From a phage: 64,000 nucleotides of DNA. The notes below the pieces were generated by a model. It had not been told where the DNA came from and did no database searches. It saw only the letters and a list, made by a program, of their open reading frames with translations. A program made the position numbers and the translations under genes. The stretch lies in NCBI GenBank assembly GCA_012441205.1, contig GCA_012441205.1_4705.1; one strand, given 5' to 3'. Below are positions 232 to 64,000 of this stretch, one piece after another (the stretch's first letter is position 1; the number at the start of each line of letters is the position of its first letter).

Positions 232-2238
232 TCATAACGTGATTACATCCTCCGGTTTAGGTTCTTTACGCGGTAAAAGCATGTAGTCGATCGGATGATC
301 TGGCTTCATGGTTGGGATATAACTGTTCGGGTTTTGGAACGCATCCAGTTGCTCTTGGTGAGCGAACTTCATACTCAAGGAGCGCATGTTCATGTTCTTC
401 TTGAAGGTACTGAAGTATCGTGTTGTTCCCTGTTTCGGCATGCGATAATCTTTCGTGTGTGGCGAACGAATCATGCTGGCGTAGAGAATAACATCGAGAT
501 GCGAAAGGTTCATTCGCAGACGCTGGGCACACAGACGATGCCAATAATACAGCACGTTTGCAACTTCTTCCGGCGTTGCTTCGTCTTCCGAAAGGAATCC
601 GGCACTGAAAGAACCTTTCCCGAATTTGAACTCACGTTCGATTTCTTTTGCGTATTCCATCATGTTTTTGTGGATTAACGGCATCTGGAATAACGTACGT
701 GAATTGTCCCAATGTTTCAAGTCGAAAATCACAATCCCGTCAGACGTCACTTCCCAGCTATGGCGTTTTAGATAACGGATAAACGCTTTACTCGGTACAA
801 CAGGACGACCGCAGAAATCGAAATTGACTTTGAGCTTACGATAGCTTTCATCTTTCCTGTCGTAAATCTCCATATCGCAAAGCGTCATGTTAAACAAACG
901 TTGCGGTATCAGCGAACTAATTTCTTCCGCTTCGGCTACGTCGTACAACATGTTCGCAAGACCTAACTTCATCTTAATCAGCACGTGTTTACCTTTCAGC
1001 TCACGTGCGAGTTTGATGTCGTTCATGTTCTGGCTGTAGCGAAGGATATGTTGATATTCCGGTGGGATTGGTGCTGTGGATACCGTTGACGAACCATCGT
1101 GGTGTTTGGTAGAAAGAATGTTCTGCGTTACCTGTTGCGAACAGGTACGCGCTGCGCCATCGCCGACATTATCGGTTAGTGCGAAGTTATGACTTAATTC
1201 ACCGTAACACGTTGTACATACCCCAGCAGGATCGGGATGATGGCAATAGTTAACGGAGCGCATGCGTACCGTCGTACCAATCAATTCTTTCATGTGTGGT
1301 TGTATCGCTACCAACGAACCGTCATCACGAATAATGAATCGACCATGGAAGCCACGCAGGTCGGTCTCATCACGGATTGGCATCGGGATGGTCTCTTTAC
1401 TACCACAATCACCAGGATGAAGTCGTTGTACAACCGCTGTCGCTATCTGAAGTTCACGACCGAAATATTCAGACTTTTTAATCTGCTCTTTGTTGAACAG
1501 CAACGATTTCGCCGCAGAACGACTTTCTTTCAAGCTGTCGGGAAGAGAGATCAAACCAGCTGCGTACGACCGCATTACTGGATCACGGAATATCTCGGAG
1601 TTAATATCAGTCAAGAATCCACGCATCCCAATACACTGTAGCACCTGCCCAATCGAAACGTGTTCGGTTCTTACCGCACGTGCAATAGGGTTTGCATGTA
1701 ACGTTTTATCGGTGCTCAGTACCTTGGTCAGTTTCTTGTATGCGCTTTCGATACCTTCACGGGTGGGTTCCGCTTCGGCGATGATTTTCTTAACTTCGGG
1801 GTGTACAGTAATCTGATAAAAATCATCCGCGCAAATCGTTGTTACGTATTCCTCCAACGCATACGTAAAGAAGTTATACACATTGTTAAACATATCGAAC
1901 AATGCTTTCCAGAGAACCTCACGATTCTCTTGTGGGTAAGCATACATGCATTGACGATACGCGGCGCTTTGCAACGCAACCGATGAACCCGCTGTGAACT
2001 TGCGTTTATCAACCAGGTTCTCTTTTGTCAGTGGTGTCTCAGGATACATGCGATGCACAGACCAGTGCATGTAACTAAAGAAAATGCGTCGCGCACGTAA
2101 TTCATGAACGCCATCGTCCATCTCGATATATACGCGGTCATTAGGCTGTGCCCACTCGAATACCTCATCAACCGGCCAGTGCATAAGCTCGCGTGCCCTC
2201 ACACGACGTTTCGTGGTGGTCGTCTGTGTTGTAGTCAT
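232..2238 (-). CDS. RNA polymerase beta-prime C-terminal-like subunit (split RNAP)
   Basis: 668 aa; ...AGVCTTCYGELSH...GAARTCSQQVTQNILSTKHHDGSS matches the bacterial beta-prime segment CAHCYGRDL...[27 protein letters not shown] RBS upstream. Confidence 0.7.
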   Translation of the reverse strand: MTTTQTTTTKRRVRARELMHWPVDEVFEWAQPNDRVYIEMDDGVHELRARRIFFSYMHWSVHRMYPETPLTKENLVDKRKFTAGSSVALQSAAYRQCMYAYPQENREVLWKALFDMFNNVYNFFTYALEEYVTTICADDFYQITVHPEVKKIIAEAEPTREGIESAYKKLTKVLSTDKTLHANPIARAVRTEHVSIGQVLQCIGMRGFLTDINSEIFRDPVMRSYAAGLISLPDSLKESRSAAKSLLFNKEQIKKSEYFGRELQIATAVVQRLHPGDCGSKETIPMPIRDETDLRGFHGRFIIRDDGSLVAIQPHMKELIGTTVRMRSVNYCHHPDPAGVCTTCYGELSHNFALTDNVGDGAARTCSQQVTQNILSTKHHDGSSTVSTAPIPPEYQHILRYSQNMNDIKLARELKGKHVLIKMKLGLANMLYDVAEAEEISSLIPQRLFNMTLCDMEIYDRKDESYRKLKVNFDFCGRPVVPSKAFIRYLKRHSWEVTSDGIVIFDLKHWDNSRTLFQMPLIHKNMMEYAKEIEREFKFGKGSFSAGFLSEDEATPEEVANVLYYWHRLCAQRLRMNLSHLDVILYASMIRSPHTKDYRMPKQGTTRYFSTFKKNMNMRSLSMKFAHQEQLDAFQNPNSYIPTMKPDHPIDYMLLPRKEPKPEDVITL

Positions 2239-2383
2239 TATTGCTTTCCGATTTAAATGGTTTTATCATACGGTTTACCAAATCCGTTGGACTTTACTAT
2301 CGTTGTGATAGCATCGGGAATCCCTTCCCTTAGGTTATGTAGGTGTTAATATATCTCCACTGCTGACCTTTATGTCGGCAGCA

Positions 2384-2869
2384 TTATCCAGCTTTCTGTT
2401 GTAAAGCGTATGGATCCATAGCGTCAGACATATCCGCAAAAACGGTGAGAATAAACCCCTTTATCTGTCTCACCTCGGTTACACGAAGCCCTTTATCATT
2501 ACGATATACGTTTTCTTCACCGACCAACTTCGGCCTGATAGCATAAACCCCATCAACAAACGGGAATGTCGGATACGGATAAATACCGATACGAATGATG
2601 TTTGGGTGATCGCCTAGAAGGTCACGTCCAAACTTATCGACTCGACCATAAATCGTTCCATCCACACCTTCCACTTCAATGAGATCATTTCGAATATCCT
2701 GAAATAGCTGCTCTAACGTGTCGGCGGGATACGCGTATGCGACGCCTAACGCTGGATCCTCAATGGTTTTGACACTGAATCCGTTAAGCCAAACAATCCG
2801 TTCGTCCGCCCATGTTTCTTCATATACCGTTAATCCATCGCCGTATATGTTGGCGTGTGCTATCTCCAT
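2384..2869 (-). CDS. hypothetical protein
   Basis: 161-aa ORF, GAGGAAA RBS upstream of ATG. Confidence 0.5.
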   Translation of the reverse strand: MEIAHANIYGDGLTVYEETWADERIVWLNGFSVKTIEDPALGVAYAYPADTLEQLFQDIRNDLIEVEGVDGTIYGRVDKFGRDLLGDHPNIIRIGIYPYPTFPFVDGVYAIRPKLVGEENVYRNDKGLRVTEVRQIKGFILTVFADMSDAMDPYALQQKAG

Positions 2870-2983
2870 AATCTCATTTCCTCTTATACGTTAGGATAGA
2901 TGACATGTTGGATATACGTTGCCTTTGCATATATTGCTTTATTTCCGTCAGAAATAACGGAAAATAAAAACAACGACATAGTT

Positions 2984-3013
2984 CCCTCCCACCTCCACAT
3001 GGGAGAGGGAGGG
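2984..3013 (-). terminator. hairpin CCCTCCC/GGGAGGG followed by U-run on minus strand
   Basis: 7-bp GC stem, T-rich tract downstream in transcript sense. Confidence 0.5.
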
Positions 3014-3026
3014 CTATTCGTGTTTA

Positions 3027-3389
3027 TTACTCTATGCTGTCTTCTTCAACACAATCCTCTTCGGAACCGTCGAACGTTTTCTGCACTGCGGTGGTATCCC
3101 AGTTGGCAGCGTAATCAGCCATCGCTTCGCGCAGTGCTTCTTCACCAGCATCACCAGCCAGGTCAAGCACAACCAACCCTTGCGCGACGTTTTGAGCGAC
3201 AGTATCAATAACGGTCGCATCTTCTTCAAAACTACGTACCGGTTCAATGGTGCCTACATCAACAGCATAGTTCGTGGTCGCTGTAAGCACGGCGACTTGT
3301 AGCGCGTCGCTATCTTCATCATGCAATGCTGCTTCAATACCGATTGGACGGGCCAGTTCTTGCAGTGTTAATTTGCGAATTAAGTTCAT
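3027..3389 (-). CDS. hypothetical acidic protein
   Basis: 120-aa ORF, GAGGAAA RBS, followed by hairpin and T-run. Confidence 0.5.
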   Translation of the reverse strand: MNLIRKLTLQELARPIGIEAALHDEDSDALQVAVLTATTNYAVDVGTIEPVRSFEEDATVIDTVAQNVAQGLVVLDLAGDAGEEALREAMADYAANWDTTAVQKTFDGSEEDCVEEDSIE

Positions 3390-3411
3390 TATGTTTTTCC
3401 TCAGGTGAATG

Positions 3412-3762
3412 TTAGCAATCGTTTAAAACTTTTTCGATACGATGGTTGACGAGTTCATTGAACGACTCTTCAACTTGTTCGATAATTTCATCAACGTCGA
3501 TATCTAATTGTTGGGGTTGGATAACATGCTCTTTCATGGTTTCTAGCCAGTATTCGGCTTTAACCATAACGTTAGCTACTTGTTCGACCTGGCTGCGTAT
3601 GTCGACGATCTGGCAGTCAGGATTTTTAATATCGATGATGTGCCCGTGCTGATTGATAAAGCCTAGCTTATTCGACGCCTTTACCGCATCGCGGGCAAGT
3701 TCTTGCAAGATTAAATTATTAACGTAGTTCACTGCTACGGAACGATTTTCGTTATCACTCAT
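3412..3762 (-). CDS. hypothetical protein
   Basis: start moved to internal ATG (MSDNEN...) preceded by AAGAGGA; the longer ORF N-terminus overlaps the upstream hairpin. Confidence 0.45.
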   Translation of the reverse strand: MSDNENRSVAVNYVNNLILQELARDAVKASNKLGFINQHGHIIDIKNPDCQIVDIRSQVEQVANVMVKAEYWLETMKEHVIQPQQLDIDVDEIIEQVEESFNELVNHRIEKVLNDC

Positions 3763-3840
3763 ACCAGGGATCCTCTTTAAGTCATCACATTCTAGTGTTA
3801 AGCAGTTAAAATAAACCGTCCCTTTAATCAGCATAAACAT

Positions 3841-8257: not shown

Positions 8258-9844
8258 TTAGAAGTTGCCTTTGGTAGTTACCGCATCCACCAGGTTAAAC
8301 AAATCAACACTCAGCTTGTAAACCTCCTGCTGGCTACGGTTGAGCAGCGGGCTGTATGCAGATGGGTTGATGTTCGGCATGGTGTACGGAATCGGTGCGG
8401 AGCCGTCAACGCTGATCTTGAACTGGCTGTCCAGGAACAGGTTAATCGCGCCGCTCACCATAACCGCATTCGGGTTGTTACCCAACATGGAGGGTAGGAT
8501 ATTGGTAATCATGTCAGAACGCATTTGTTCAGCAGCACGGTTACAATCGTATCCTTTAATGAACGGTACAGCGTCGGTAACCGCAACCGCCCACTGACCT
8601 GGCATGATACCGAGTTCTGGGTGACCATGGTTGTCAGCAATGAAACGGAACGACTCCAACATGCGATACGTCATCGCAGCAGGCATCATTGCAGCAAGCG
8701 ATGAGCAATACAGCGTTGGATAATCGATCACGTCCCAGCTCTGGCTGTCGGTAGGCATCCAACCAAACTCGGTGGTTGCTGATGTACCACGACGAGCTTC
8801 CACATACGGGAATAACGTTAAGACGTCACGGATATGTTCACCGAACATCCGTTTCATGTCAGCCCAACTCAGGCTACCGCTGAAAGCGAATCCTTCATCA
8901 CGCATAATCGCACCGAATACCGGATGCGCAACCAGAGGTTCTTCACGAACAGCTTGAGCGGCTTCCACGTAAATATCCTCGTTCTCTGCGCTACCTGGAT
9001 GAGACCCGCTTTCGTACGTCTGACGAATAGCTCCAACATTATCGAAGGCTTTTCTCAGATAGATGGTTGGGATGTTCGTATCAGCACTAGCTGGTTTGAT
9101 TTTCTCTGTTGCGAAACACATAGCTGCTTCCACACCACGGAAAACCGGTTCCGGTTGCGGTGGATAGGATGTACGATGAACCACATCAGCGTAGGCTGGA
9201 TCGAACTGCTGCATCACGTTCTGCATGGCTGGGTCCATGAACTGGTTATCAAAACCACCATTACCTACCCAACGTGCTGTTGATGCATAGGTCAGCGTAT
9301 CCTGAACACGAGTACTGAACTGAACATCACGATTAACAGGGTCGTATGCGCCGGTCAACAGGTTCGTTGCGTCCATCGGGGTTGCACGAACGATTTGCTT
9401 ACCGAACATATCCGTCGTGGTTGTTTCGGTTACCTGGATTACGTTCGTGAAGAAGAACACCAGTTCGTTCGGCAGATCGATAGCACGCGTTGTAAACGCA
9501 TCGAGACTTACAGAATGGTCGGTGTATCCAGAAATGTAATGGACGCGCTTGGTTCCTGGTGCAAGGGCCAAGGATTCTTCTACAGCCATCATGAAATGGA
9601 AACGGCGTGTGCCCCAACCATTCGCAATCTCCGAAACCCCCTCAGGTTCTGCAGACTGCTGCAACAACCCGGTTGCAAGCTTATTGATTGCTGATGGTGT
9701 TGTTGCCGTACCGAACCGCGTCGTGTTAATAAAGTCTTCGATGCTACGCATGCTATCTGCGTGGAATCGTAGCGGACGACGCTGTACGTTGTTGTACGGT
9801 GCGGTTTCAACCATCAGGATTTCACGAACATTCATCGGGATCAT
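8258..9844 (-). CDS. hypothetical protein
   Basis: 528-aa ORF; its start abuts the stop of the upstream gene. Confidence 0.5.
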   Translation of the reverse strand: MIPMNVREILMVETAPYNNVQRRPLRFHADSMRSIEDFINTTRFGTATTPSAINKLATGLLQQSAEPEGVSEIANGWGTRRFHFMMAVEESLALAPGTKRVHYISGYTDHSVSLDAFTTRAIDLPNELVFFFTNVIQVTETTTTDMFGKQIVRATPMDATNLLTGAYDPVNRDVQFSTRVQDTLTYASTARWVGNGGFDNQFMDPAMQNVMQQFDPAYADVVHRTSYPPQPEPVFRGVEAAMCFATEKIKPASADTNIPTIYLRKAFDNVGAIRQTYESGSHPGSAENEDIYVEAAQAVREEPLVAHPVFGAIMRDEGFAFSGSLSWADMKRMFGEHIRDVLTLFPYVEARRGTSATTEFGWMPTDSQSWDVIDYPTLYCSSLAAMMPAAMTYRMLESFRFIADNHGHPELGIMPGQWAVAVTDAVPFIKGYDCNRAAEQMRSDMITNILPSMLGNNPNAVMVSGAINLFLDSQFKISVDGSAPIPYTMPNINPSAYSPLLNRSQQEVYKLSVDLFNLVDAVTTKGNF

Positions 9845-18331: not shown

Positions 18332-18556
18332 TTAGCAATGGTTGTTAGTTGCTTCTATTTCGTCAAGATAAGGTTCTACGTCATCGCCCTCCACGAATTC
18401 GTTGAACCAACAGTCAATAGTGGAAATAACCGGTGACTGGTGTTCACATTTCTTAGATACCTTAAAAGGTACGTTATTATCCATCATACCGAGTTCGGGT
18501 CGAAAACGCCCGAAATGTTTCGCAGTCCAAATGTCTGGGACGATATGGTTGTTCAT
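18332..18556 (-). CDS. beta-prime N-like subunit, exon 3 (MNNHIVP...)
   Basis: MNNHIVP...GMMDNNVP...SPVISTID aligns with beta-prime QMAVHVP...LMMSTNNI...PIIVPSQD directly after DFDGD; in frame with the micro-exon. Confidence 0.55.
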   Translation of the reverse strand: MNNHIVPDIWTAKHFGRFRPELGMMDNNVPFKVSKKCEHQSPVISTIDCWFNEFVEGDDVEPYLDEIEATNNHC

Positions 18557-18916
18557 CAATATCTTCAATACGAATCGCTACTTCGTATCCGCAGCATTAC
18601 CTGCAGCTCCTGGTGTTACCAGGATGTTGAGAGTATATCATGTCCATATTCCAAATGGAACGTAGGACTTCCGCGCTGGATCTCGCTTGAGACCACTTAC
18701 TCGTTGAACGTTCTCCTAAAAGGAGCTTCGCTGCTGATTGGACATTGTTACGTACGGTAGGCGTCCCACTAAAGGGATTTTCATTGAAGCCGCGTACATC
18801 CGTTACCTTGTTTCTACCTTATCGGTTCCTCTTACGAGGCGTAACGGCTTTAGCCTATTCCAGCAATTCACGGAATGCATATTCTCCTTTTCAGGAGATA
18901 AGGCCATGGCTCTGGC
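18557..18916 (-). mobile_element. group I self-splicing intron 2 (ORF-less, about 360 nt; 5' boundary approximate)
   Basis: diverged tandem copy of intron 1 with the same P/Q/R/S order; P7 pairs compensate (GAGUA/UACUC versus GAUCA/UGAUC); 3' end GAAGATATTG| before ATGAAC. Confidence 0.6.
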
Positions 18917-18931
18917 ATCACCGTCAAAGTC
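18917..18931 (-). CDS. beta-prime N-like subunit, 15-nt micro-exon GACTTTGACGGTGAT (DFDGD)
   Basis: joins in frame to exon 1 to rebuild NADFDGD; the 5' splice site of the following intron is not resolved, so the exon could be a few codons longer. Confidence 0.55.
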
Positions 18932-19281
18932 CACGTATCTTCAGTATGAATCGCTACTTCATACCCGCAGCATTACCTGCAGCTCCTGGTGTTACCAGGA
19001 CGGAGAGATCATCTCATCACCCACGAAGGGTGTTCCGCGCTACCCTCAGCGAATTCGAGGGACATGATCGTTGAACCTTCCACCGATGATCGATGGCTAG
19101 GCTGCTGATTGGACATTGTGCGTTGGGGTGGCATCCTGGTTCAGGACTGTCATTGAAGCCTCCCAACATCCACTCACTTATTTCCGCCTCATCGGCTCCC
19201 ACAAGGGCAGAGTGGCTTTAGCCCGTCTCAGCAATTCACGGAATTCAAGCTCTTCCTTTCGGAAGGCAGGGCCTCATTTGA
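18932..19281 (-). mobile_element. group I self-splicing intron 1 (ORF-less, 350 nt)
   Basis: exon ends GCU| with a possible U.G pair in P1 (GCUUC/GAGGC); P-like GAATTGCTG, Q-like AATCAGCAGC, R-like GTTCAACGATCA, S-like GATGATCTC; 3' end GAAGATACGTG| before GAC. Confidence 0.7.
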
Positions 19282-20532
19282 AGCGTTGTATCCCTTAAGG
19301 ATCATCACGCTTAACCCGATGGTGTTATCCTGCGGATCGCGTTTAACCTTGGTGATTTCAAGACATTGGTTACTGCTTCGGTCAAGTGATGGGTTTCGAA
19401 CAAAGCCACACACAATCCCATCGAACGGTGTATCAGCAATAAGCTCATCGTGCAGCTCGCTCATCATTGGATGATAATTACGGACATGTTCCGCAACGAA
19501 CGCACGTGCTGCTCTTGGCGAATAACCACGATGGAATAACTTGGATTGGATATGTTCTTTATTGGTTAAAGTAAATGGTGCGTATGGGAAATGCAGATGA
19601 TAATAACGATGGTTTGCTGTTATCGAACTGATTACGGTACGCGTGGTGAATGGATGTAATGTACCTAATATGTTTTTACGTGTGATACCTTTCTTCTTAC
19701 CAATGAACTCATCGAAAATTGCTGCGTGGTATTGCAGTAGCTTCAATTGTACTTTCGCCATCCAGTTTTCTTTCTTTCTGGCGCTCAAAGGTGTTGTTGG
19801 GTGATAGATACTATTCAACGTACCGATAGCATCGATCGCACCTTCCATTTTGCTATCTGCATAACGACCGGTTGGCGTATTCTCGATAACGAACATCATG
19901 GCCGCAGGAAAGCTGATATACTGACTGAAGAACTTATCACGATGGATACGGATGAATTCTCGTAGCGTGTCAACTTTCTCCGTGTTCTTCGGTCCACGTA
20001 ACGTAGGTCCTTTATACAAGATCTCCATGATGCGATCGAAGTTCTGTATAAAGCTATTTACGCCACGTCGTATCCCGAATACATCGAATTGCTGCTCCAG
20101 ATAGTTCTTGAGTTCGATGGGTCGTTTTACATTTGGACGGTAACTGGCATCAATGAGCCACGTCATCGTTTCAAAGCTTTTGATATTCAACTCGCTTGCC
20201 AGCACGAGATGGACCAACGGGTTAATGAACGCATCAATTCCTTCAGGAACACGCGCCCAAACCGTCGAACGAATCTCTTGTTCTGCTGGATAGGTTACAA
20301 CCGTTTTACAGTTCGGACACACCGTACCGAGCAGCTCACCACGATTGTAGAAACCACAACCACATTGTGGTGTGATATCCAACGTATCGCTGGAGTAAAC
20401 ACGGGTGATAAAACTGTTTAATTTCTTCTTCTCTTCGACGACTTTTGTATCGTAATCATTCAACAAAATCGGCGTGAAAGGAAGTTCTGCGAGCTGTCTA
20501 TCGAAACTCACGATATCGAGCATGATGGCCAT
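19282..20532 (-). CDS. RNA polymerase beta-prime N-terminal-like subunit, exon 1 (ends ...KGYNA)
   Basis: zinc-finger CGCGFYNRGELLGTVCPNCKTVV matches beta-prime [41 protein letters not shown] matches NLLGKRVDYSGRSVI; the ORF runs to GYNA and then reads through into intron sequence. Confidence 0.75.
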
Positions 20533-56841: not shown

Positions 56842-59800
56842 TTATTTGGCGTCGTTAAAATAAATATCAACAGCTCGTTCCGTTGCGTAGAGGAGACCAA
56901 GATTCACAGTCCCAACCACTTCCGGTGAACCGATGATACGGTTAGCGATACTGGTGCCACTGAAGATAGCATCAAGGGTGTGCCCGTCTTCGGTTTTGTT
57001 CACACCATGACCCACGGAAGAGACAACGGATTTCGCTTGAGCTGCGAAGGTACCTTTATCGCCCATCCCCGCACCAAGGTCGTAACGCATGAAAATACGG
57101 ATTGCGATCTGGTTCTCGCCTAACGGATTACCGTCTATTCTCACGTTACTGTTATTGATACGCCCCGTAGTTGCTTCGTTGAGTTTCAGTTCCTTAACGC
57201 GTTTAGCTCGCGCTTTATCTGCATCACCGACGAGCGCCGCCATGGTTTCACTCATATCCTCAATCTGAGCGCGGTACAGCACATCGATCTGTACAACTTC
57301 ACCATGAACGTCAGCACGTGGGTTATACTGACTCATACGACGTAATGCTTCAACGGCTTCCTGACTCTCATCACTCAGATCGGTCGCAATCGGTTCTTCC
57401 AGTGTTGCAAGGATCGTTCGTGGTTCAACATGATCGCCGATTTTCACGAGACCACGAATGTTGAGATGGGCGTCAACGATGAGCGTACGGCTCTTAATCG
57501 ATGGTGTTACGAGACGATCGGCAAGATTGTCGAAGATATACGAACTGTCCTCGTGAGTCTCTGGAATATCCAGAATACCGACAAGAGACAGAACACCTGC
57601 GCGCCAAACAACCTGACCTGGGTTCCACCAATCGCGTTTAAAATAAAGACGATGGAAGACCACCACATCCTGATCCTTAACGCGATCCCCGACTTTATAA
57701 TCGGTAATGAGATCGTGAGGATAATACTTACCTGGTCCTTTCCCGATTATCGTACCGAGCTGGAAAACCTCTTCCCCTAACTCTGGATCGTCGTATTGTA
57801 TCGTCAGCGCAGTTTTGGTGACCTTCTTAACAACACCGTCACCTTGGGCGGCAGCTGCAAAGAGTTTACCAACACGATGCGCGATGACAGTCTCACCGCC
57901 GGTGCGCCACGGTTGTACATCGTAACCCTCAGCGGCAATCATGCGGTTGTGTTGGATCCCGACGAAGACCAGACGTTTTCCATCATCACGGTCTACAGCC
58001 GGAACAGCTAACGCTGACGTACTCATTACCGATGAGATGCCGTCTGTCTTTTCATCGAATGGTCGTGTTTCACCATACACCGACACGATATTAGCATTAG
58101 GTGCAAGGTAAGCAGAGATACCCACATCCCCACTATCTTTCGTACCCTCTGACACAATACCAACATCGGACTTGTCGTATTCACGATCACGTGCGCGTCG
58201 AAGCGATGTCTTTGAACGACCCCCGATACCGGTCATCGTTGCTTCTTCACCCTGCTTGATATCCAGCATCGGGTTGGTTTCATCGATCACGATGGACGCG
58301 CTGTCGTCGAGAATTTGGTTCCAGACACTTACCGGACTGATTGAGATTTTCTGGCGGTTTCCTTGACTGCTGTTCTCATTCTGACGAATAGCGCCAACCA
58401 GATCCTTATACACCAATTCAGCGAACTTATCGTACGTTTTAAAACGTTGGTAGTTCACATCGTTCGTGTTAGGTGCCCAATCATCCAGAAGCAGTTCAAC
58501 AGCACGCAGTAACAACATGGCGAAATCGGTAGGTTCTCCCATGTTCTGTAGCAACGTACGGCTTACCGGATCAACGAAAAGACGCTCCATGAGTTCAAGT
58601 TCGCGTAAATGGCGAACCTTAAGTCCGGCACCATCGACAACGTTAAAATAGATATCTCGATTGTCGAAAGCACCGCGAGCGTAACCGATGTAGTTACGGT
58701 ACTCGTTAAATCCGCCCAGCAACAACGTCGTCATGCGATCGTCTTTACTGAAGATCAAACTTTCGTCATCAAAGCTCACCGCGAATTCATCGGGTGCTAG
58801 ACCCATACGAGAACCGCGAGGTACCGTACGATAGTTCGCTTTAAGATGTTCTAATAACGGGGTAAGTCCACCCAGATAACTTAGAACAACACCAACCGGA
58901 ATACGTACACCCATGAATTCAAGATCGGCGGCTTCGATCGGCATCTTAGCCGCATTGATACCGAAGAAATCAGGGAACGTCCCTACAGGTGTTGGTGTTT
59001 GTCCTGACTGACAGATATAGAGCTGATTGCGTTTATCGATTGCTAAGAATTCACCCAGCGTGTTACGCGCAAACGTCAGGAGCCCTTCGGCTAACTGTTC
59101 GTTGAACCGATCTTCCCCGATGAACTCCGGTAGCGTTTTTATATCGAGACGTATATCCCAATCAGCAAATTGGATTTGGGTATAGTTGCGTGCAAGCACA
59201 GCGAAGTAATACGGGACTTTGACGGCCGGATCAAAGACGTTACCACGTTTTAACGTGGTTAAGGGTGAGGACTTATCGTAATACATCGCTGTAAGTTGGC
59301 GTGTTAACCAACGACCGGCGTTATTAACGACACGCTCTGAACGTTTAACAAACACCTTACCGTAGGCGGTACTCAACGCAACTTCGGATGATGATACCTT
59401 TCTAATAGGTTTATCAACACGTTGTTTACGCATCCGGTATTTGATGCCGTTAACGACATAAATGCCGTCCTTACGAACCTTCGGCAACATCACCGGGAAC
59501 GTGGTTGGGACACCGCCTACAGGGGCCAGTTTAATCGTGATGACTTGATAATCCCCCATCACGTCAACAACATCTTCAACTTTATATCCCGTGACAGGGT
59601 AACCTGCCTGTTGTACGGCAACAACAGCGGCTGCGATGTCCTTTTGCATCACGTGTTCAACGTAATGTTTATCCCACACCGCAAGCGTCGATTTACATAG
59701 GCTCTTATCGACGATAACATCCGCTTCCGGCATAACCTTTGCTGGCGCTAATTTCGCGGCTTTTGGTTTAACTTCAACATACTCAGCAAGTGTTAATCCA

Positions 59801-61188
59801 GAACCGTCGGGTGCTTCGATTTCATGGATGGCGTCAGCATTACGCATCGCTGCTTTATATTGGACGCCGCTTAACTGACCCGCATCAGCCAGATCGCTCG
59901 CGCGTACCAACACCGCATCCGATAACGACTGAATATATTCACCGTGCGTTTTTGGTAACGTTGCCGCGTCAAAGACATCAACCTTTTCTTCTTCGGTATC
60001 GTCGGTAACGACTTCGAAGAGATCGTCGGTAATGTCCTGATCTTCATCAGGTTGAAAATCCGGCTGTACTTCTACCCCGGGTACTTCACGGACATCTTCG
60101 AACGAGCGTTCTACAATGGCGTTCCACGCATCAGCGTCATCGTCTTCATCCGACCCACCAACCAACTCCGCTTCTAACTCATCGGAATCAAGAACAGTGG
60201 CCAGATCCTCACCGTTAGGAAGCACGACGTCGCGATCATCGTACTCTGCATCCGGGCTGTCCGCAAGAATATCTCGCTCTTGACGAAGAACCTGTTCCTC
60301 TTCTTGTTTCTGTTCTTCTTCATTCGCGCTCTGCGACCATAGACGTGTTACCGCCATCATCCAACGACGCTGGAAGGTTTCGAGTGTCGTTTTATCGAGT
60401 TCTTCCCCTTCCTTTACAAGCCCGGTACGCCATTCTTCCAACAGGCCGAGATTCAGCGTAAAGAAGTACACACCGTCTGTAAATACAACGTTAAGCTTAT
60501 CCAGCGTGGCTCTGTCTAACGAAGCCATTGTGCTGTTCTCACGATCGGTTCCCAACCAGCGGAAGAAGTCAAAGAACGACAGCTCCTCCGGCGTGGCGAA
60601 ATTCATGAGGTTGTTACGGGTCGGTGCCTGTTGCGTGGTACGCATCAACGAAATCTTCGGCAATGTTGACGGTATACGGAACAACAAAAAGTGTTGGCGA
60701 TCGCTTTGCTGCGCGATTTCGTTGGCTTTCGACCAAATTGTTTTACGTACGTTGAACCATTCATCATACCAACGGGTGAGCGTTGGACGATAGATGTACA
60801 TGTGGTTAAGATGTGCGTAGTTAGCAACGATCTGAGCGTTGATGTTTTTCTCCACCGTACTTAGATCGGTAACCAAACGAAAACGACGATGTGACGCACG
60901 ATAATCCAATTTCGCTCGTGGGAGCTGGAATCGCTGATCACGTCGAGGTGCACCCTGTTTGGTTGCGAGATCATCAGCAAACGAAATCCATAGTTGAGCA
61001 CTTTCTTTACTCAACATGTATTCGTTTTCTGGAGGACCTATCAATGAAGGATCCGTTGCGGTGTAATGATAGACAGCATAACGTGGCAGCTGCAATAGCT
61101 GCACTAAACGTAATCTCGGTGACAATAGCTCTTGGTATCGTCTGACGCCAAACTGTCGGTAGTAATCAAGGTATTTAAGTTTTGCCAT
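56842..61188 (-). CDS. RNA polymerase beta N-terminal-like subunit with about 500-aa acidic N-terminal extension
   Basis: [14 protein letters not shown]...AGRWL matches beta [20 protein letters not shown]...RGSWL; [32 protein letters not shown] matches [43 protein letters not shown] matches LIPFLEHDDANRAL; ends after a GDK...GHTLDAIFS segment matching GDKMAGRHGNKG...GTPVDIVLNP. Confidence 0.65.
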   Translation of the reverse strand: [1448 protein letters not shown]

Positions 61189-61191
61189 GGG

Positions 61192-61371
61192 TTAGGCTCC
61201 ACGAGGTCCCGTTAAGTTGCGTAATAGGAACGCAACCGTATCGTAACCAATATCGATGTTGAATTTATTTTTACCACTTACCCAGAAAGCTCGCTTCTTG
61301 TGCGAGTTGGTAATTTCGTCAATAGCTTCCATGGAATAAAGAACGTTAACCGAGACCGTATCACCGTCGAA
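61192..61371 (-). CDS. second beta-prime N-like subunit, exon 2 (FDGDTVSVNV...)
   Basis: in-frame continuation after the intron; FDGD-TVSVNVLYSMEA matches FDGD-QMAVHVPLTLEA; stop lies 3 nt before the beta-N-like start. Confidence 0.55.
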   Translation of the reverse strand, partial: FDGDTVSVNVLYSMEAIDEITNSHKKRAFWVSGKNKFNIDIGYDTVAFLLRNLTGPRGA

Positions 61372-63353
61372 CCTTATCTTCGCCTCAGGTCGCTACGCTG
61401 AGACCGCCTGCATGGATACGTACATCACAGGCTGCTTGCACTTTCATGCAAGAGGAGACTATATCAAACCGGCAGCACAACCTGCTACGGTAACCTACAC
61501 TTCGAAGACGCTCGTCCTCTACAGGGTGGTAAATCCCTTAGTCGTTGAACCTGCGTTGTTTCCCATTCTTGCAAACAAGAATGCCGTATTGCTACGCAAC
61601 AACCAGGCTGCTGATTGCCCATTGTTTCGCACCTTAGCACCGCTTACGCGGCTTTTCTTTCAGCCTAAGCCTCTTACGGAGTTAGTGCATCTCAACTGTT
61701 GTTTCTGCCTTTCGGCACCTCATGGGTCGTTGAGCTTTAGGGGTTCCCAGCAATTCGTAGGTTTTTCAAGCACTCCCTTTCGGGAATACCGGACTCATTA
61801 TTAGCTTATTTATTCAAGTATCTGAAATCCCACTTATCTTTACGTCGTTTATCGCACTTAATGTCAGGATGATTAACACGATGCCTAATAGTTGTTGCCG
61901 ATAGCTGGCTGAGATTCTCAGCAGATCGTGCGCCAAGAACAACGAGTTTTGTGTCGTCTGGACGCGTAACTTCTACTGCCCGATAATGCTTACGTAACAC
62001 ATCACGCCAATATTCACGACGTTCTGGTTCAGCATACTCAAGCATGTAACCGTTAACATCTACTAAACCGTAGCTTTCGTTTAATCGAGAGGTAGCGGCT
62101 GGTTTACTAATACCGATTGCTTTAGCCGCATCGACCACGGTTTTATACGGGGTCTCATTACCGTCTCTATCTACAACCACAATGAAATCTGGACGTGAAT
62201 CGAGTAGCTGCTGTCTGCGTTCGACGGCTTGTTGATGAAGCACCATGTTAACGTGTTCGAACCCGTAACCTTCTGGGCCACGCCATCCTGGATTGTTGTT
62301 CGCTCGATAAAGTATCGTCGATGATTTCACTCCAGTCTGACGCGATGCCTCGTTTGCGCTATGAACAACCGTGGTAGAGCCATCAGGATGATATATCCGT
62401 ATCTGGTTCATTATACCGGAACCAATGAAGTTACCATCGGCTGATTTAATGTCCGGCCATGGTTGCGGGTCATCTTTGAATTTAACCACCCAGCGGTTGT
62501 TAAACAGCTTAACTTTTCGAACATGTTTGCCTAATGTCGTATCCGTAACACCTGCGACCACTGACGCTTGTGTAATGCTCAGGTACTCAGTAACGGTATC
62601 GTTCCAAGTATCCCAGAGCAGAACCGGTTTATTGTCGTCACGTAAACCATGTTCGATAGCATGCAGGACATTACGACTTCTGGTTGCCCATTCCAGATTG
62701 TCAAGAGAATAGTTCCACTTATCAGCATCAAGATGATTAACGTCCATCTTATCGACATTAGCCGGATATTCCCGCCACGCCAACATCAAGCAGCGATGTA
62801 AAACCTTAGTTCTCGTTGTATCTCGACAATCGTGACGTAGACTAATGAATACGTAGTTATCCTTTTTCGGATACGATCTGCATTCCTGTCCATCCTTGCG
62901 GGAGATAACTCGCCCTTTCTCATTTATCAGATAACGAGTATGTCCAGGAATAACACGATAACCAGGGTACTTAGCGATCTCATAAGCAGGCTCGAAACGA
63001 TAGGATAAGTTATCAACATCCCAATTAGATTCGTCGCCGTCAACAAACATCGCTTTGACGTACTTCTGTGTTTCAATATCAACCAGGATGTTTTTGTGTG
63101 CGATACAAATCAATGCTGGGATATTGAATTCGCGACCAGCTAAAGTAACAGTGTCGCCGTTTCTCGGTATCGCGACGTGGGTATCACGATACCGTAAGTT
63201 TCCATAGCCGTCTATTTCAATCCAGCTCAGAAACGGAATAGATATAAATTCTTTTTCAGATACTCGCCATTTAAACATATTAACACCTATTAAATAGGAA
63301 ACATCATATTAATAGGTTTAAAAGTTAAAAATGACAGAAAATGGCTAAATTGA
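61372..63353 (-). mobile_element. group I intron 3 (about 1.98 kb) carrying an HNH endonuclease ORF
   Basis: 5' end GAU|UCAAUUUAG... with a 6-bp P1 candidate (GAUUCA/UGAGUC) that includes U.G at the splice site; core after the ORF has P GAATTGCTGGG, Q AATCAGCAGC, R GTTCAACGACTA, S GATATAGTCTCC with P7 GACUA/UAGUC; GNRA-loop P9-like hairpin; 3' end GAAGATAAGG| before TTC. Confidence 0.65.
61806..63278 (-). CDS. HNH homing endonuclease (intron-encoded)
   Basis: VNHLDADKWNYSLDNLEWATRSRNVLHA is a classic HNH motif; own AGGTG RBS; lies between the intron 5' splice site and the ribozyme core. Confidence 0.7.
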   Translation of the reverse strand: MFKWRVSEKEFISIPFLSWIEIDGYGNLRYRDTHVAIPRNGDTVTLAGREFNIPALICIAHKNILVDIETQKYVKAMFVDGDESNWDVDNLSYRFEPAYEIAKYPGYRVIPGHTRYLINEKGRVISRKDGQECRSYPKKDNYVFISLRHDCRDTTRTKVLHRCLMLAWREYPANVDKMDVNHLDADKWNYSLDNLEWATRSRNVLHAIEHGLRDDNKPVLLWDTWNDTVTEYLSITQASVVAGVTDTTLGKHVRKVKLFNNRWVVKFKDDPQPWPDIKSADGNFIGSGIMNQIRIYHPDGSTTVVHSANEASRQTGVKSSTILYRANNNPGWRGPEGYGFEHVNMVLHQQAVERRQQLLDSRPDFIVVVDRDGNETPYKTVVDAAKAIGISKPAATSRLNESYGLVDVNGYMLEYAEPERREYWRDVLRKHYRAVEVTRPDDTKLVVLGARSAENLSQLSATTIRHRVNHPDIKCDKRRKDKWDFRYLNK

Positions 63354-63983
63354 ATCACCACCAAGTCCGGCGAGGTATGGCGCAGGGACAATAGTCGTTT
63401 CTACGAACGAAGCATTAGGTAACCAGTCGGGGTATTCCCATGCGATAAATCGTTCATCCGTTATTGGTTCCCAGTTACTATCCAGTTCGGTTTTCGGTTT
63501 TGCGGCGACGGTTGTACGTGCGTAACAGGTTAACGGGATAACGGATTGCATACCTGATACCGGATAACGTGTTACCATCGCAGCCAGGTTATTCCAGTAC
63601 TTATATCCGGCAATATAGATAAGCTCGGTGTAAGTAATGGGGTGAACATCCGCGCCAGGTTTATTCAACATCTCCGGGGGTAATTCACTCATGTCACGGA
63701 ATAACCGAAACGAATCGTTGTTCACATAGACGAGGCAAAGATATCGTCCATTGACCATGATAGGCTCGTTACGCACGCCAGGATCGCTTAAGGTGTTCAG
63801 TAAACGTTCTATTCCGTCCCATGTTGTAAAGTCATCGATGGTGTCTGGATCAAGCGTGACGCGCTCACGTTCCATCGTTTCGGTATCAATAAGTTCAACT
63901 TCTGTAACATCACGGACAAATATTTCCTGCAAAATACCGGTACGTAACGCATGTTGCGTTACTGGGAGAGCGGCTTTACTCAT
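63354..63983 (-). CDS. second beta-prime N-like subunit, exon 1 (ends ...YLAGLGGD; 5' end may be incomplete)
   Basis: TRYPVSGMQSVIPL matches beta-prime RVDYSGRSVITVGP; the terminal D supplies the first Asp of DFDGD; the last two codons and stop of the raw ORF are intronic. Confidence 0.5.
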
Positions 63984-64000
63984 CTGGTATAACCCTAACT

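Follow-up and report, generated by a model that had tools for sequence, protein, structure and literature searches.

A predicted group I intron with an HNH endonuclease gene in the beta-prime gene of the virion RNA polymerase in a Goslar-like jumbo phage

Introns accompanied by the endonucleases gp56, gp72 and gp179 have been predicted in phage phiKZ since 2002 (Mesyanzhinov 2002 and Ceyssens 2014, as cited in PMC10914365 and PMC11512511), and in later papers the interrupted phiKZ polymerase genes are identified as gp55 and gp180 (PMC10914365, PMC11512511). The gp180 protein is reported to be packaged in the virion (PMC10612078), and gp179, which can be deleted, has been described as a homing endonuclease encoded by the intron (PMC12676376). 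Polymerase genes of other chimalliviruses are likewise known to contain introns. In PhiPA3, the intron endonuclease gp210 acts in competition between phages (Birkholz et al. 2024, Science; PMC11620839). This report concerns a locus of a similar type in a 64,000-nucleotide (nt) stretch of phage DNA, GenBank assembly GCA_012441205.1, contig GCA_012441205.1_4705.1 (termed the window). Here a gene for the N-terminal beta-prime subunit of the virion RNA polymerase is interrupted by a predicted group I intron, which carries an open reading frame (ORF) for an HNH endonuclease.

The window region displays 87.5% DNA identity with Escherichia phage Goslar, a nucleus-forming jumbo phage, and has no other match in the phage collection. 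All features of the locus in the virion gene are on the minus strand (Table 1). At the window edge, position 64000, the first 820 nt of the interrupted gene are cut off. The missing part was supplied by a public contig derived from the Sequence Read Archive (Logan contig SRR5814921_166), which is 100% identical to the window over 6001 nt.

The locus is read, with a probability of about 0.9, as a mobile group I intron that separates codon 1 from codon 2 of the DFDGD metal-binding motif in the virion polymerase beta-prime N-terminal gene. The anatomy of the sequence, the covariation of the ribozyme, the selection on the ORF, the exact restoration of the protein, and alleles that are empty or lack the ORF were observed, and are described below.

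Exon 1 ends with ...YLAGLGGD (DNA GGTGGTGAT, last base 63354) and its frame continues with TCA ATT TAG. Exon 2 starts with TTCGACGGTGAT, translating FDGDTVSV.... Both the end of exon 1 and the restart of the frame after the ribozyme core had been pointed out in a first-pass annotation of this DNA, and both were verified on the minus strand. The 212 amino acid (aa) ORF of that annotation is an artefact of the window edge, as the full exon 1, taken from the identical contig, has 1467 nt (489 codons); its 46-codon downstream ORF covers only that part of exon 2 (59 codons in all) which an ATG delimits.

The joined exons encode a 548-aa protein that reads ...GLGGD-FDGDTVSV, with the junction-spanning stretch ...YLAGLGGDFDGDTVSVNVLYSMEAIDEITNSHK. 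This spliced product gives one unbroken match to PHROG 2986 up to the end of the profile (5.4e-80). When a 154-aa query that spans the junction was run with tblastn, 285 phage records were matched; 246 of these cover 80% or more of it in one place, and nearly all rows among the matches listed are single-piece matches. An alignment of the spliced products of the window and Goslar with the uninterrupted proteins KTN4_220, PhiPA3 gp212, SA002, pEa_SNUABM_54 and CR5 is free of gaps through ..GLGGD/FDGDT.. (a slash marks the site of insertion). The proposed junction, GAU/...G/UUC restoring D-FDGD, agrees with this alignment and with a 99%-identical intron-less allele (contig L014, see below). The intron ends with ...AGATAAGG, the G being at 61372. 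We note that the junction is ambiguous by one T, which is the first base of both the intron and exon 2; the junction given was chosen because it is the only choice that yields a terminal G of the intron and fits the P1 register.

By homology the interrupted gene is that of the virion RNA polymerase beta-prime N-terminal subunit, an ortholog of phiKZ gp180. Annotated homologs are phiKZ gp180, PhiPA3 gp212 and KTN4_220, and the Goslar ortholog is gp205. Pfam searches did not find an RNA polymerase domain in either of the two beta-prime-like proteins of the window, nor in the 1448-aa protein encoded next to exon 2. A single-sequence search of PDB gave no match; a family profile was required. The profile of six family members matches the beta-prime chain of phage AR9 (7e-15) and bacterial beta-prime (~1e-6), and it aligns the DFDGD loop, LagLggDfDGDtvs with LSALSGDYDGDVLN. 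The beta-prime-N-like identity suggested at first is upheld by these matches.

A gene that is permanently split, with no splicing, would produce separate polypeptides from the ORFs ending ..GLGGDSI and starting at ATG 61332, and these would assemble in the polymerase. This is considered very improbable. RNA polymerase subunits of jumbo phages are naturally split into several polypeptides (PMC7598289), gp205 in the GenBank record of Goslar ends inside the intron with exon 2 unannotated, and spliced reads were not seen for the phiKZ homolog in one study (PMC10914365). Such a split, however, would have its break inside the DFDGD metal-binding loop and would lose the first 13 codons of exon 2, and no Shine-Dalgarno sequence precedes ATG 61332. 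It also does not account for a covarying, above-threshold ribozyme whose U at -1 and terminal G are exactly at the in-frame positions, and close relatives encode the same protein uninterrupted.

With the interruption read as an intron, its type is indicated by the ribozyme core. Rfam RF00028 matches positions 61821..61435 over the full model (1-253) with 57.8 bits (E = 4.7e-12; gathering score 50 bits), and is the sole Rfam family at or above the gathering score in the 64-kb window. Seven related introns were aligned: those of the window, Goslar, phiKZ and OMKO1, all at the same site, and three introns from non-virion polymerase genes. RNAalifold predicts 55 pairs in this alignment, 32 of which show compensatory changes. 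In the named structure, including the P7 pseudoknot, 90.7% of cells are paired, vs 30%-44% in a control in which helix partners were moved by 1-3 columns. Both-side changes are found in 31 of its 56 pairs, and the observed values were reached by none of 500 shuffles. One P7 position is C-G, U-A, G-C or A-U among the seven introns. All helices of the named structure pair in the window sequence. By these criteria of sequence and covariation the element is a group I intron, as the first-pass annotation had it (a group I intron of ~2 kb), and the four core elements quoted there, P, Q, R and S, are exact.

Two hairpins between P7 and P3′ (GGG..CCC and GAGGAC..GUCUUC) were recognized by inspection and in the fold of an ORF-less relative. 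Hairpins at this place, P7.1/P7.2, are a mark of subgroup IA2, the group I subgroup typical of phages. In Goslar the P8 loop of the intron is longer by 49 nt (~8560-8610 of the Goslar segment L001), with no counterpart at window positions 61476/61477; an ORF-less copy in the contig L016 is of the long form.

The 5′ strand of P1, GAU/UCA (63356..63351), and its 3′ strand UGAGUC (61797..61792) are paired across 1564 nt. The register of P1 was tested on eight related introns. In eight of eight the best helix has the -1 nucleotide facing a G that lies 4-5 nt upstream of P2. The guide sequences change with the exons: GUC or GUCC is found with exon GAU or GGAU, GGC with GCU, and GAGUC with GACUU. 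The Goslar intron has C for U at position +1 and G for A in its partner, a compensatory change of U-A to C-G. The HNH gene is placed in the loop of P1, because the guide sequence is just 5′ of P2 and far from the 5′ splice site. Two other candidates for P1 were rejected. A local P1, in which exon GGUGAU pairs with GUCAUU (63335..63330) in the leader, is contradicted by Goslar, which has GGCAAA, and by the ORF-less relatives and the register test, which put the guide 5′ of P2. Rfam's own P1/P2 at 61821..61790 is not the real P1; its distance from the splice site is 1.5 kb.

The HNH gene ahead of the core is complete, as had been annotated, and intact at 490 aa. Its product matches Pfam HNH_3 with 35.9 bits (5.7e-9; cut-off 24.8 bits) and HNH families of PHROG, e.g. 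PHROG 59 at 1.5e-28. In PDB, residues 114-214 match residues 11-107 of I-HmuI (1U3E, E = 6.7e-4), and the alignment, ..VNHLD..DNLEW..RN.., shows that the catalytic DH..N..N residues are kept. A weak second stretch aligns with I-HmuI residues 120-156, in its C-terminal helix-turn-helix region. The ratio of nonsynonymous to synonymous divergence (dN/dS) from Goslar is 0.11 at a dS of ~0.8, and the ORF is intact in both phages; by this ratio the gene is under purifying selection and kept functional. By analogy with I-HmuI the protein is probably a homing endonuclease of the same type, a nickase. It displays 32% identity with phiKZ gp179 over 228 aa (E = 2e-32), and the HNH protein of an intron in the Goslar non-virion gene is a more distant relative.

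The HNH gene has an overall identity of 82% with that of Goslar, with a highly diverged middle third. In this middle part (62440-63070, codons ~71-280) the synonymous difference is 0.58-0.72, vs 0.16-0.32 in the flanking polymerase genes and 0.025 in exon 2, which displays 99.4% identity with that of Goslar. The mosaic pattern of divergence points to recombination within the element, the partner being a more distant copy. Upstream of the gene there is a leader hairpin, CCUAUUAA...UUAAUAGG (63284-63316), whose 3′ arm overlaps the Shine-Dalgarno sequence AGGUG (63288..63284) of the HNH ORF. A hairpin restrains translation of the endonuclease I-TevI in the td intron of phage T4, and by analogy the leader hairpin may restrain translation of the HNH protein.

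Several states of the site are found among relatives. Among Goslar-like phages, the window and Goslar have the intron with its ORF. The contig L016 (IMG/VR IMGVR_UViG_3300045988_173921) has the same intron without the ORF, 510 nt in length with a short hairpin in place of the ORF (Rfam 64.9 bits). The contig L014 (IMG/VR IMGVR_UViG_3300011560_000001, 237.5 kb) has no intron at the site and encodes the same 154 residues at 99% aa identity. Its intron-less DNA reads ..GGTGGGGAC TTTGATGGTGAT.. (site sequence ..GGTGGGGACTTTGATGGTGAT..). A comparison of GGTGGGGAC/TTTGATGGTGAT (L014, ~3770-3800) with GGTGGTGAT/TTCGACGGTGAT of the window shows that four synonymous differences lie no more than 12 nt from the insertion site, and the GAU needed for the splice-site U is replaced by GAC. 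These differences could be co-conversion tracts or the mark of a cleavage-resistant target. Phikzviruses show a parallel series: phiKZ has an HNH intron, OMKO1 a 481-nt version with remnants of the ORF, and KTN4 no intron. The uninterrupted KTN4 protein is exactly the spliced sequence of phiKZ.

Several of the results weigh against the reading of a mobile, splicing intron. The exon part of P1 has only 3 bp (GAU/GUC), and no convincing P10 was found. The minimum-free-energy fold of a natural ORF-less relative gives P2-P9 and not P1, the exon being paired elsewhere, although the P3/P7 pseudoknot is beyond such folds. The NUMOD1 match of the HNH protein (18.6 bits) is below the Pfam cut-off of 22.8 bits. 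The L014 allele, with its four synonymous differences around the site, might perhaps be no substrate of the endonuclease. ONT (Oxford Nanopore Technologies)-cappable-seq of phiKZ gave no evidence of splicing for the homologous introns under its conditions (PMC10914365). For the phage described here we infer splicing from the sequence.

The three exon pairs of P1, the lack of a clear P10 and an Rfam score only ~8 bits over the threshold would also fit a decayed, non-splicing relic within a polymerase gene copy that has become a pseudogene. This is thought to be extremely improbable. The core is 95.4% identical to that of Goslar, vs differences of 16%-72% at nearby synonymous sites, and all of its helices pair. 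Strong purifying selection acts on both exons (omega 0.02). Goslar, which has the same element, is viable and its virions contain gp205: mass spectrometry of virions detected gp205 and gp207, which are listed among five virion RNA polymerase subunits (bioRxiv 10.64898/2026.04.21.720040), a set in which no second gp180-like gene is seen.

In the mechanism proposed for the mobile intron, transcription of the operon would run through the intron and the ribozyme would fold, with P1 formed by long-range pairing of GAU + UCA with UGAGUC 1.56 kb downstream. Guanosine would attack after U63354 and the exons would be ligated after G61372, giving one mRNA for the 548-aa subunit with its GLGGDFDGDT loop intact. 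The 490-aa HNH protein would be translated from its own start codon. In a mixed infection it would cut intron-less alleles of related phages at or near GGNGAY/TTYGAYGGTGAT, and the intron would then be copied in (homing), or the polymerase gene of the competitor would be damaged, as with PhiPA3 gp210. We infer the endonuclease activity, its target and any effect on fitness.

It is unlikely, but of some weight as an alternative, that the ribozyme splices and that the HNH protein no longer promotes homing, being kept as a weapon or for another role, or being in the process of loss. The ORF-less versions in L016 and OMKO1 show that the ORF is dispensable and has been lost repeatedly, phiKZ orf179 deletion mutants are viable (PMC12676376), and PhiPA3 gp210 works by interference rather than by efficient homing (PMC11620839). 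The four synonymous changes at the site in the L014 intron-less allele point in the same direction. On the other hand, neither the window nor Goslar has a broken HNH ORF, its dN/dS is low and its catalytic residues are kept, and the finding of three allelic states in close relatives is as expected from an ongoing homing cycle.

A second beta-prime N-terminal gene of the window, that of the non-virion polymerase (20532..18332, minus strand), is interrupted by two tandem ORF-less group I introns, separated by a micro-exon (Table 1). The first-pass annotation had contrasted the insertion at D/F in the virion gene with one at A/D in this other gene. The A/D site is correct for the first intron, and the second intron, 18 nt later, had been missed. 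With both introns removed, the product is matched by uninterrupted homologs in single tblastn pieces and is of the same length there. Models that place intron 2 at DFDGD/MNNH or DFDGDA/NNH were rejected in favour of DFDGDA/MNNH, based on homolog length, the P1 register and the identical products of three configurations. At the 5′ splice site of intron 2 (18913/18914) the last exon base is C (GCC), which forms a C-G pair with the guide and not the near-universal U-G. Goslar has GCU at this site. The C is also present in L052, an independent IMG/VR contig of 97.7% identity with the same two-intron arrangement as the window; by this comparison the C-G splice site is stably maintained.

In the Goslar non-virion gene, within 1825-3632 of the segment L007, there is a first intron inside a Phe codon (GACUU/C), with the HNH gene gp186 downstream of the core, then a 13-nt micro-exon and a second intron. 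The first introns of Goslar and the window differ in place and in ORF, therefore close relatives vary in both intron site and intron content. A third arrangement is seen at 1882-3003 of L053, from the same IMG/VR entry as L016: three ORF-less group I introns (365, 376 and 355 nt) with two 13-nt micro-exons, ATAATGCAGATTT and CGACGGTGACGCT. The configurations of the window, Goslar and L053 all splice to identical ..GYNADFDGDAMNNHIVPD... Five insertion sites, GAU/UUC in the virion gene and GGGU/AU, GCU/GAC, GAYUU/C and GCY/AUG in the non-virion gene, are found within ~30 nt of equivalent coding sequence in four Goslar-like genomes.

The phiKZ intron at the virion site has 55%-58% overall identity (66%-71% in the 3′ tail) with introns of the non-virion genes, vs 51%-53% with the intron of the Goslar type that shares its site. 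A single intron lineage moving among sites and paralogs is suggested by these identities. The coding sequence of the NADFDGD loop, in virion and non-virion polymerases, may then be a shared landing pad for a single radiating lineage that retargets by changes of 3-5 nt in the guide, and the HNH intron of the window could drive or police the traffic between paralogs and between co-infecting phages. This broader proposal is tentative and is given a little less than an even chance. A literature search found no paper describing an intron lineage moving among these sites or paralogs, nor micro-exons between phage group I introns. The intron cluster of the non-virion paralog is a more unusual feature of the window than the virion-gene intron.

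The next gene of the operon, the gp178 homolog of 1448 aa, starts 4 nt past exon 2 and is uninterrupted in the window. On the contig SRR5814921_166 the beta-prime gene is preceded by a divergent gene of 2252 aa (giant tail/lysozyme) and followed by the 1448-aa gene. The gene order around the beta-prime gene is the same in Goslar, phiKZ, PhiPA3, KTN4, SA002 and CR5. A scan of the locus for promoters and terminators gave a site count not above that of shuffled sequence. In L014 and L016, positions 1237-1342 (minus strand) match the leader of ribosomal S15 in Rfam below threshold (28-32 bits vs a gathering score of 39.5). These matches fall within the giant tail/lysozyme gene, which is upstream of the polymerase operon, and are probably due to chance.

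Table 1. Positions of the exons, intron elements and associated genes in the window.
Feature	Position	Strand	Remarks
Exon 1, 3′ part (647 of 1467 nt)	63354..64000	-	frame open to window edge; PHROG 2986 at 5.4e-80
Exon 2	61192..61371	-	59 codons + TAA (61194..61192); FDGDTVSV...GPRGA
Group I intron, 1982 nt	61372..63353	-	5′ splice site after U63354; 3′ terminal omega-G is 61372
P1 5′ strand, exon GAU + intron UCA	63351..63356	-	U63354 is the splice-site U; register test on eight introns
Conserved leader hairpin	63286..63316	-	fold z-score -3.3; Goslar keeps the stem, loop differs
Intron HNH endonuclease gene, 490 aa	61806..63278	-	P1 loop; Pfam HNH_3, PHROG 59, I-HmuI 1U3E
P1 3′ strand/internal guide sequence UGA-G-UC	61792..61797	-	G61794 is the wobble partner of U63354; directly 5′ of P2
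P2 hairpin	61770..61789	-	GUAUUCCC GAAA GGGAGUGC; both-side changes in 7/9 pairs (seven-intron alignment)
Ribozyme core (Rfam match)	61435..61821	-	P3-P9
Core element P	61756..61746	-	exact sequence check
Core element Q	61616..61607	-	exact sequence check
Core element R	61550..61539	-	exact sequence check
Core element S	61465..61454	-	exact sequence check
P3	61762..61757 / 61498..61493	-	core structure
P4-P6	within core	-	P5 and P6 extended
P7	61543..61539 / 61461..61457	-	pseudoknot
P8	61491..61468	-	core structure
P9	61452..61435	-	core structure
3′ peripheral hairpins (P9.1/P9.2-like) + terminal G	61372..61434	-	helices 9-11 covary; last column invariant G
Next operon gene, virion RNA polymerase beta-like subunit	56842..61188	-	1448 aa; ortholog of phiKZ gp178 / Goslar gp207; PHROG 3148; annotations of Goslar, PhiPA3, phiKZ
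Non-virion gene, intron 1	19281..18932	-	350 nt; at NA/D (GCU/GAC); ~30 bits Rfam, below gathering score
Non-virion gene, micro-exon, 18 nt	between intron 1 and intron 2	-	GACTTTGACGGTGATGCC; encodes DFDGDA
Non-virion gene, intron 2	18913..18557	-	357 nt; ~30 bits Rfam, below gathering score

These results lead to a correction of the gene model. The virion beta-prime subunit of the Goslar type is predicted to be a spliced protein of 548 aa with an intact DFDGD loop. The database ORF of 491-502 aa is without most of the catalytic Asp triad and without the 59 C-terminal residues, which affects structural models and searches of Goslar virion mass-spectrometry data. The locus also provides an E. 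coli jumbo-phage counterpart of PhiPA3 gp210, with natural intron-plus, ORF-less and intron-less alleles. With these alleles and an intron-encoded HNH enzyme, homing vs interference competition in the phage nucleus could be tested in E. coli. That the active-site codons of the polymerases of these phages are saturated with predicted self-splicing introns is of interest for intron evolution, beyond the single finding.

With respect to known systems, the element is the Goslar-lineage counterpart of the long-predicted phiKZ gp180/gp179 intron. The host gene is the same and the insertion site, ..GxD/FDGDTVS, is identical. In phiKZ, PHIKZ180 ends with ..APLGAD and a stop codon, followed by PHIKZ179 (HNH), a group I core (Rfam 92 bits) and an exon 2 starting with FDGDTVSFNAVY. 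In both phages the HNH ORF follows the 5′ splice site and precedes P2, the HNH proteins are homologous, the guide is in the same column (GUCC/GUC), and the same three allelic states are found among close relatives. The two differ in that the ribozyme cores are only ~52% identical, the window intron has larger P5 and P6 extensions and its HNH protein is 133 aa longer, and in that one is from a Goslar-like E. coli phage and the other from a Pseudomonas phage.

The locus gp205/gp206/noncoding RNA of Goslar (NC_048170, MK327938) is the same element in the same place. The GenBank record of Goslar labels it Intron_gpI, without a joined coding sequence and without exon 2, and gp205 is annotated to end inside the intron. 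A search of the literature found nothing on the introns of Goslar. The Goslar copy differs in the intron leader, and its exon-1 frame enters the intron by 14 codons vs 2 in the window. The first-pass annotation had read the gene correctly as interrupted, and had missed both the Intron_gpI label and the phiKZ gp180/gp179 homology at the identical site.

A more general likeness is seen with I-HmuI in the SPO1 DNA polymerase intron, which shares the HNH catalytic domain and the setting, a phage group I intron in the active-site region of a polymerase gene. The two differ in host gene and in size, 174 aa for I-HmuI vs 490 aa, and nicking is known for I-HmuI and presumed for the window protein. PhiPA3 gp210 likewise comes from a group I intron that encodes an HNH endonuclease and lies in a virion RNA polymerase gene, the phage again being a nucleus-forming jumbo phage. 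The gene interrupted there is the neighbouring one, gp211/209, homologous to phiKZ gp178 and uninterrupted in the window, and function has been established by experiment in PhiPA3 only. By analogy, gp210 is likely the model for the biological role of the element described here, in competition between co-infecting phages.

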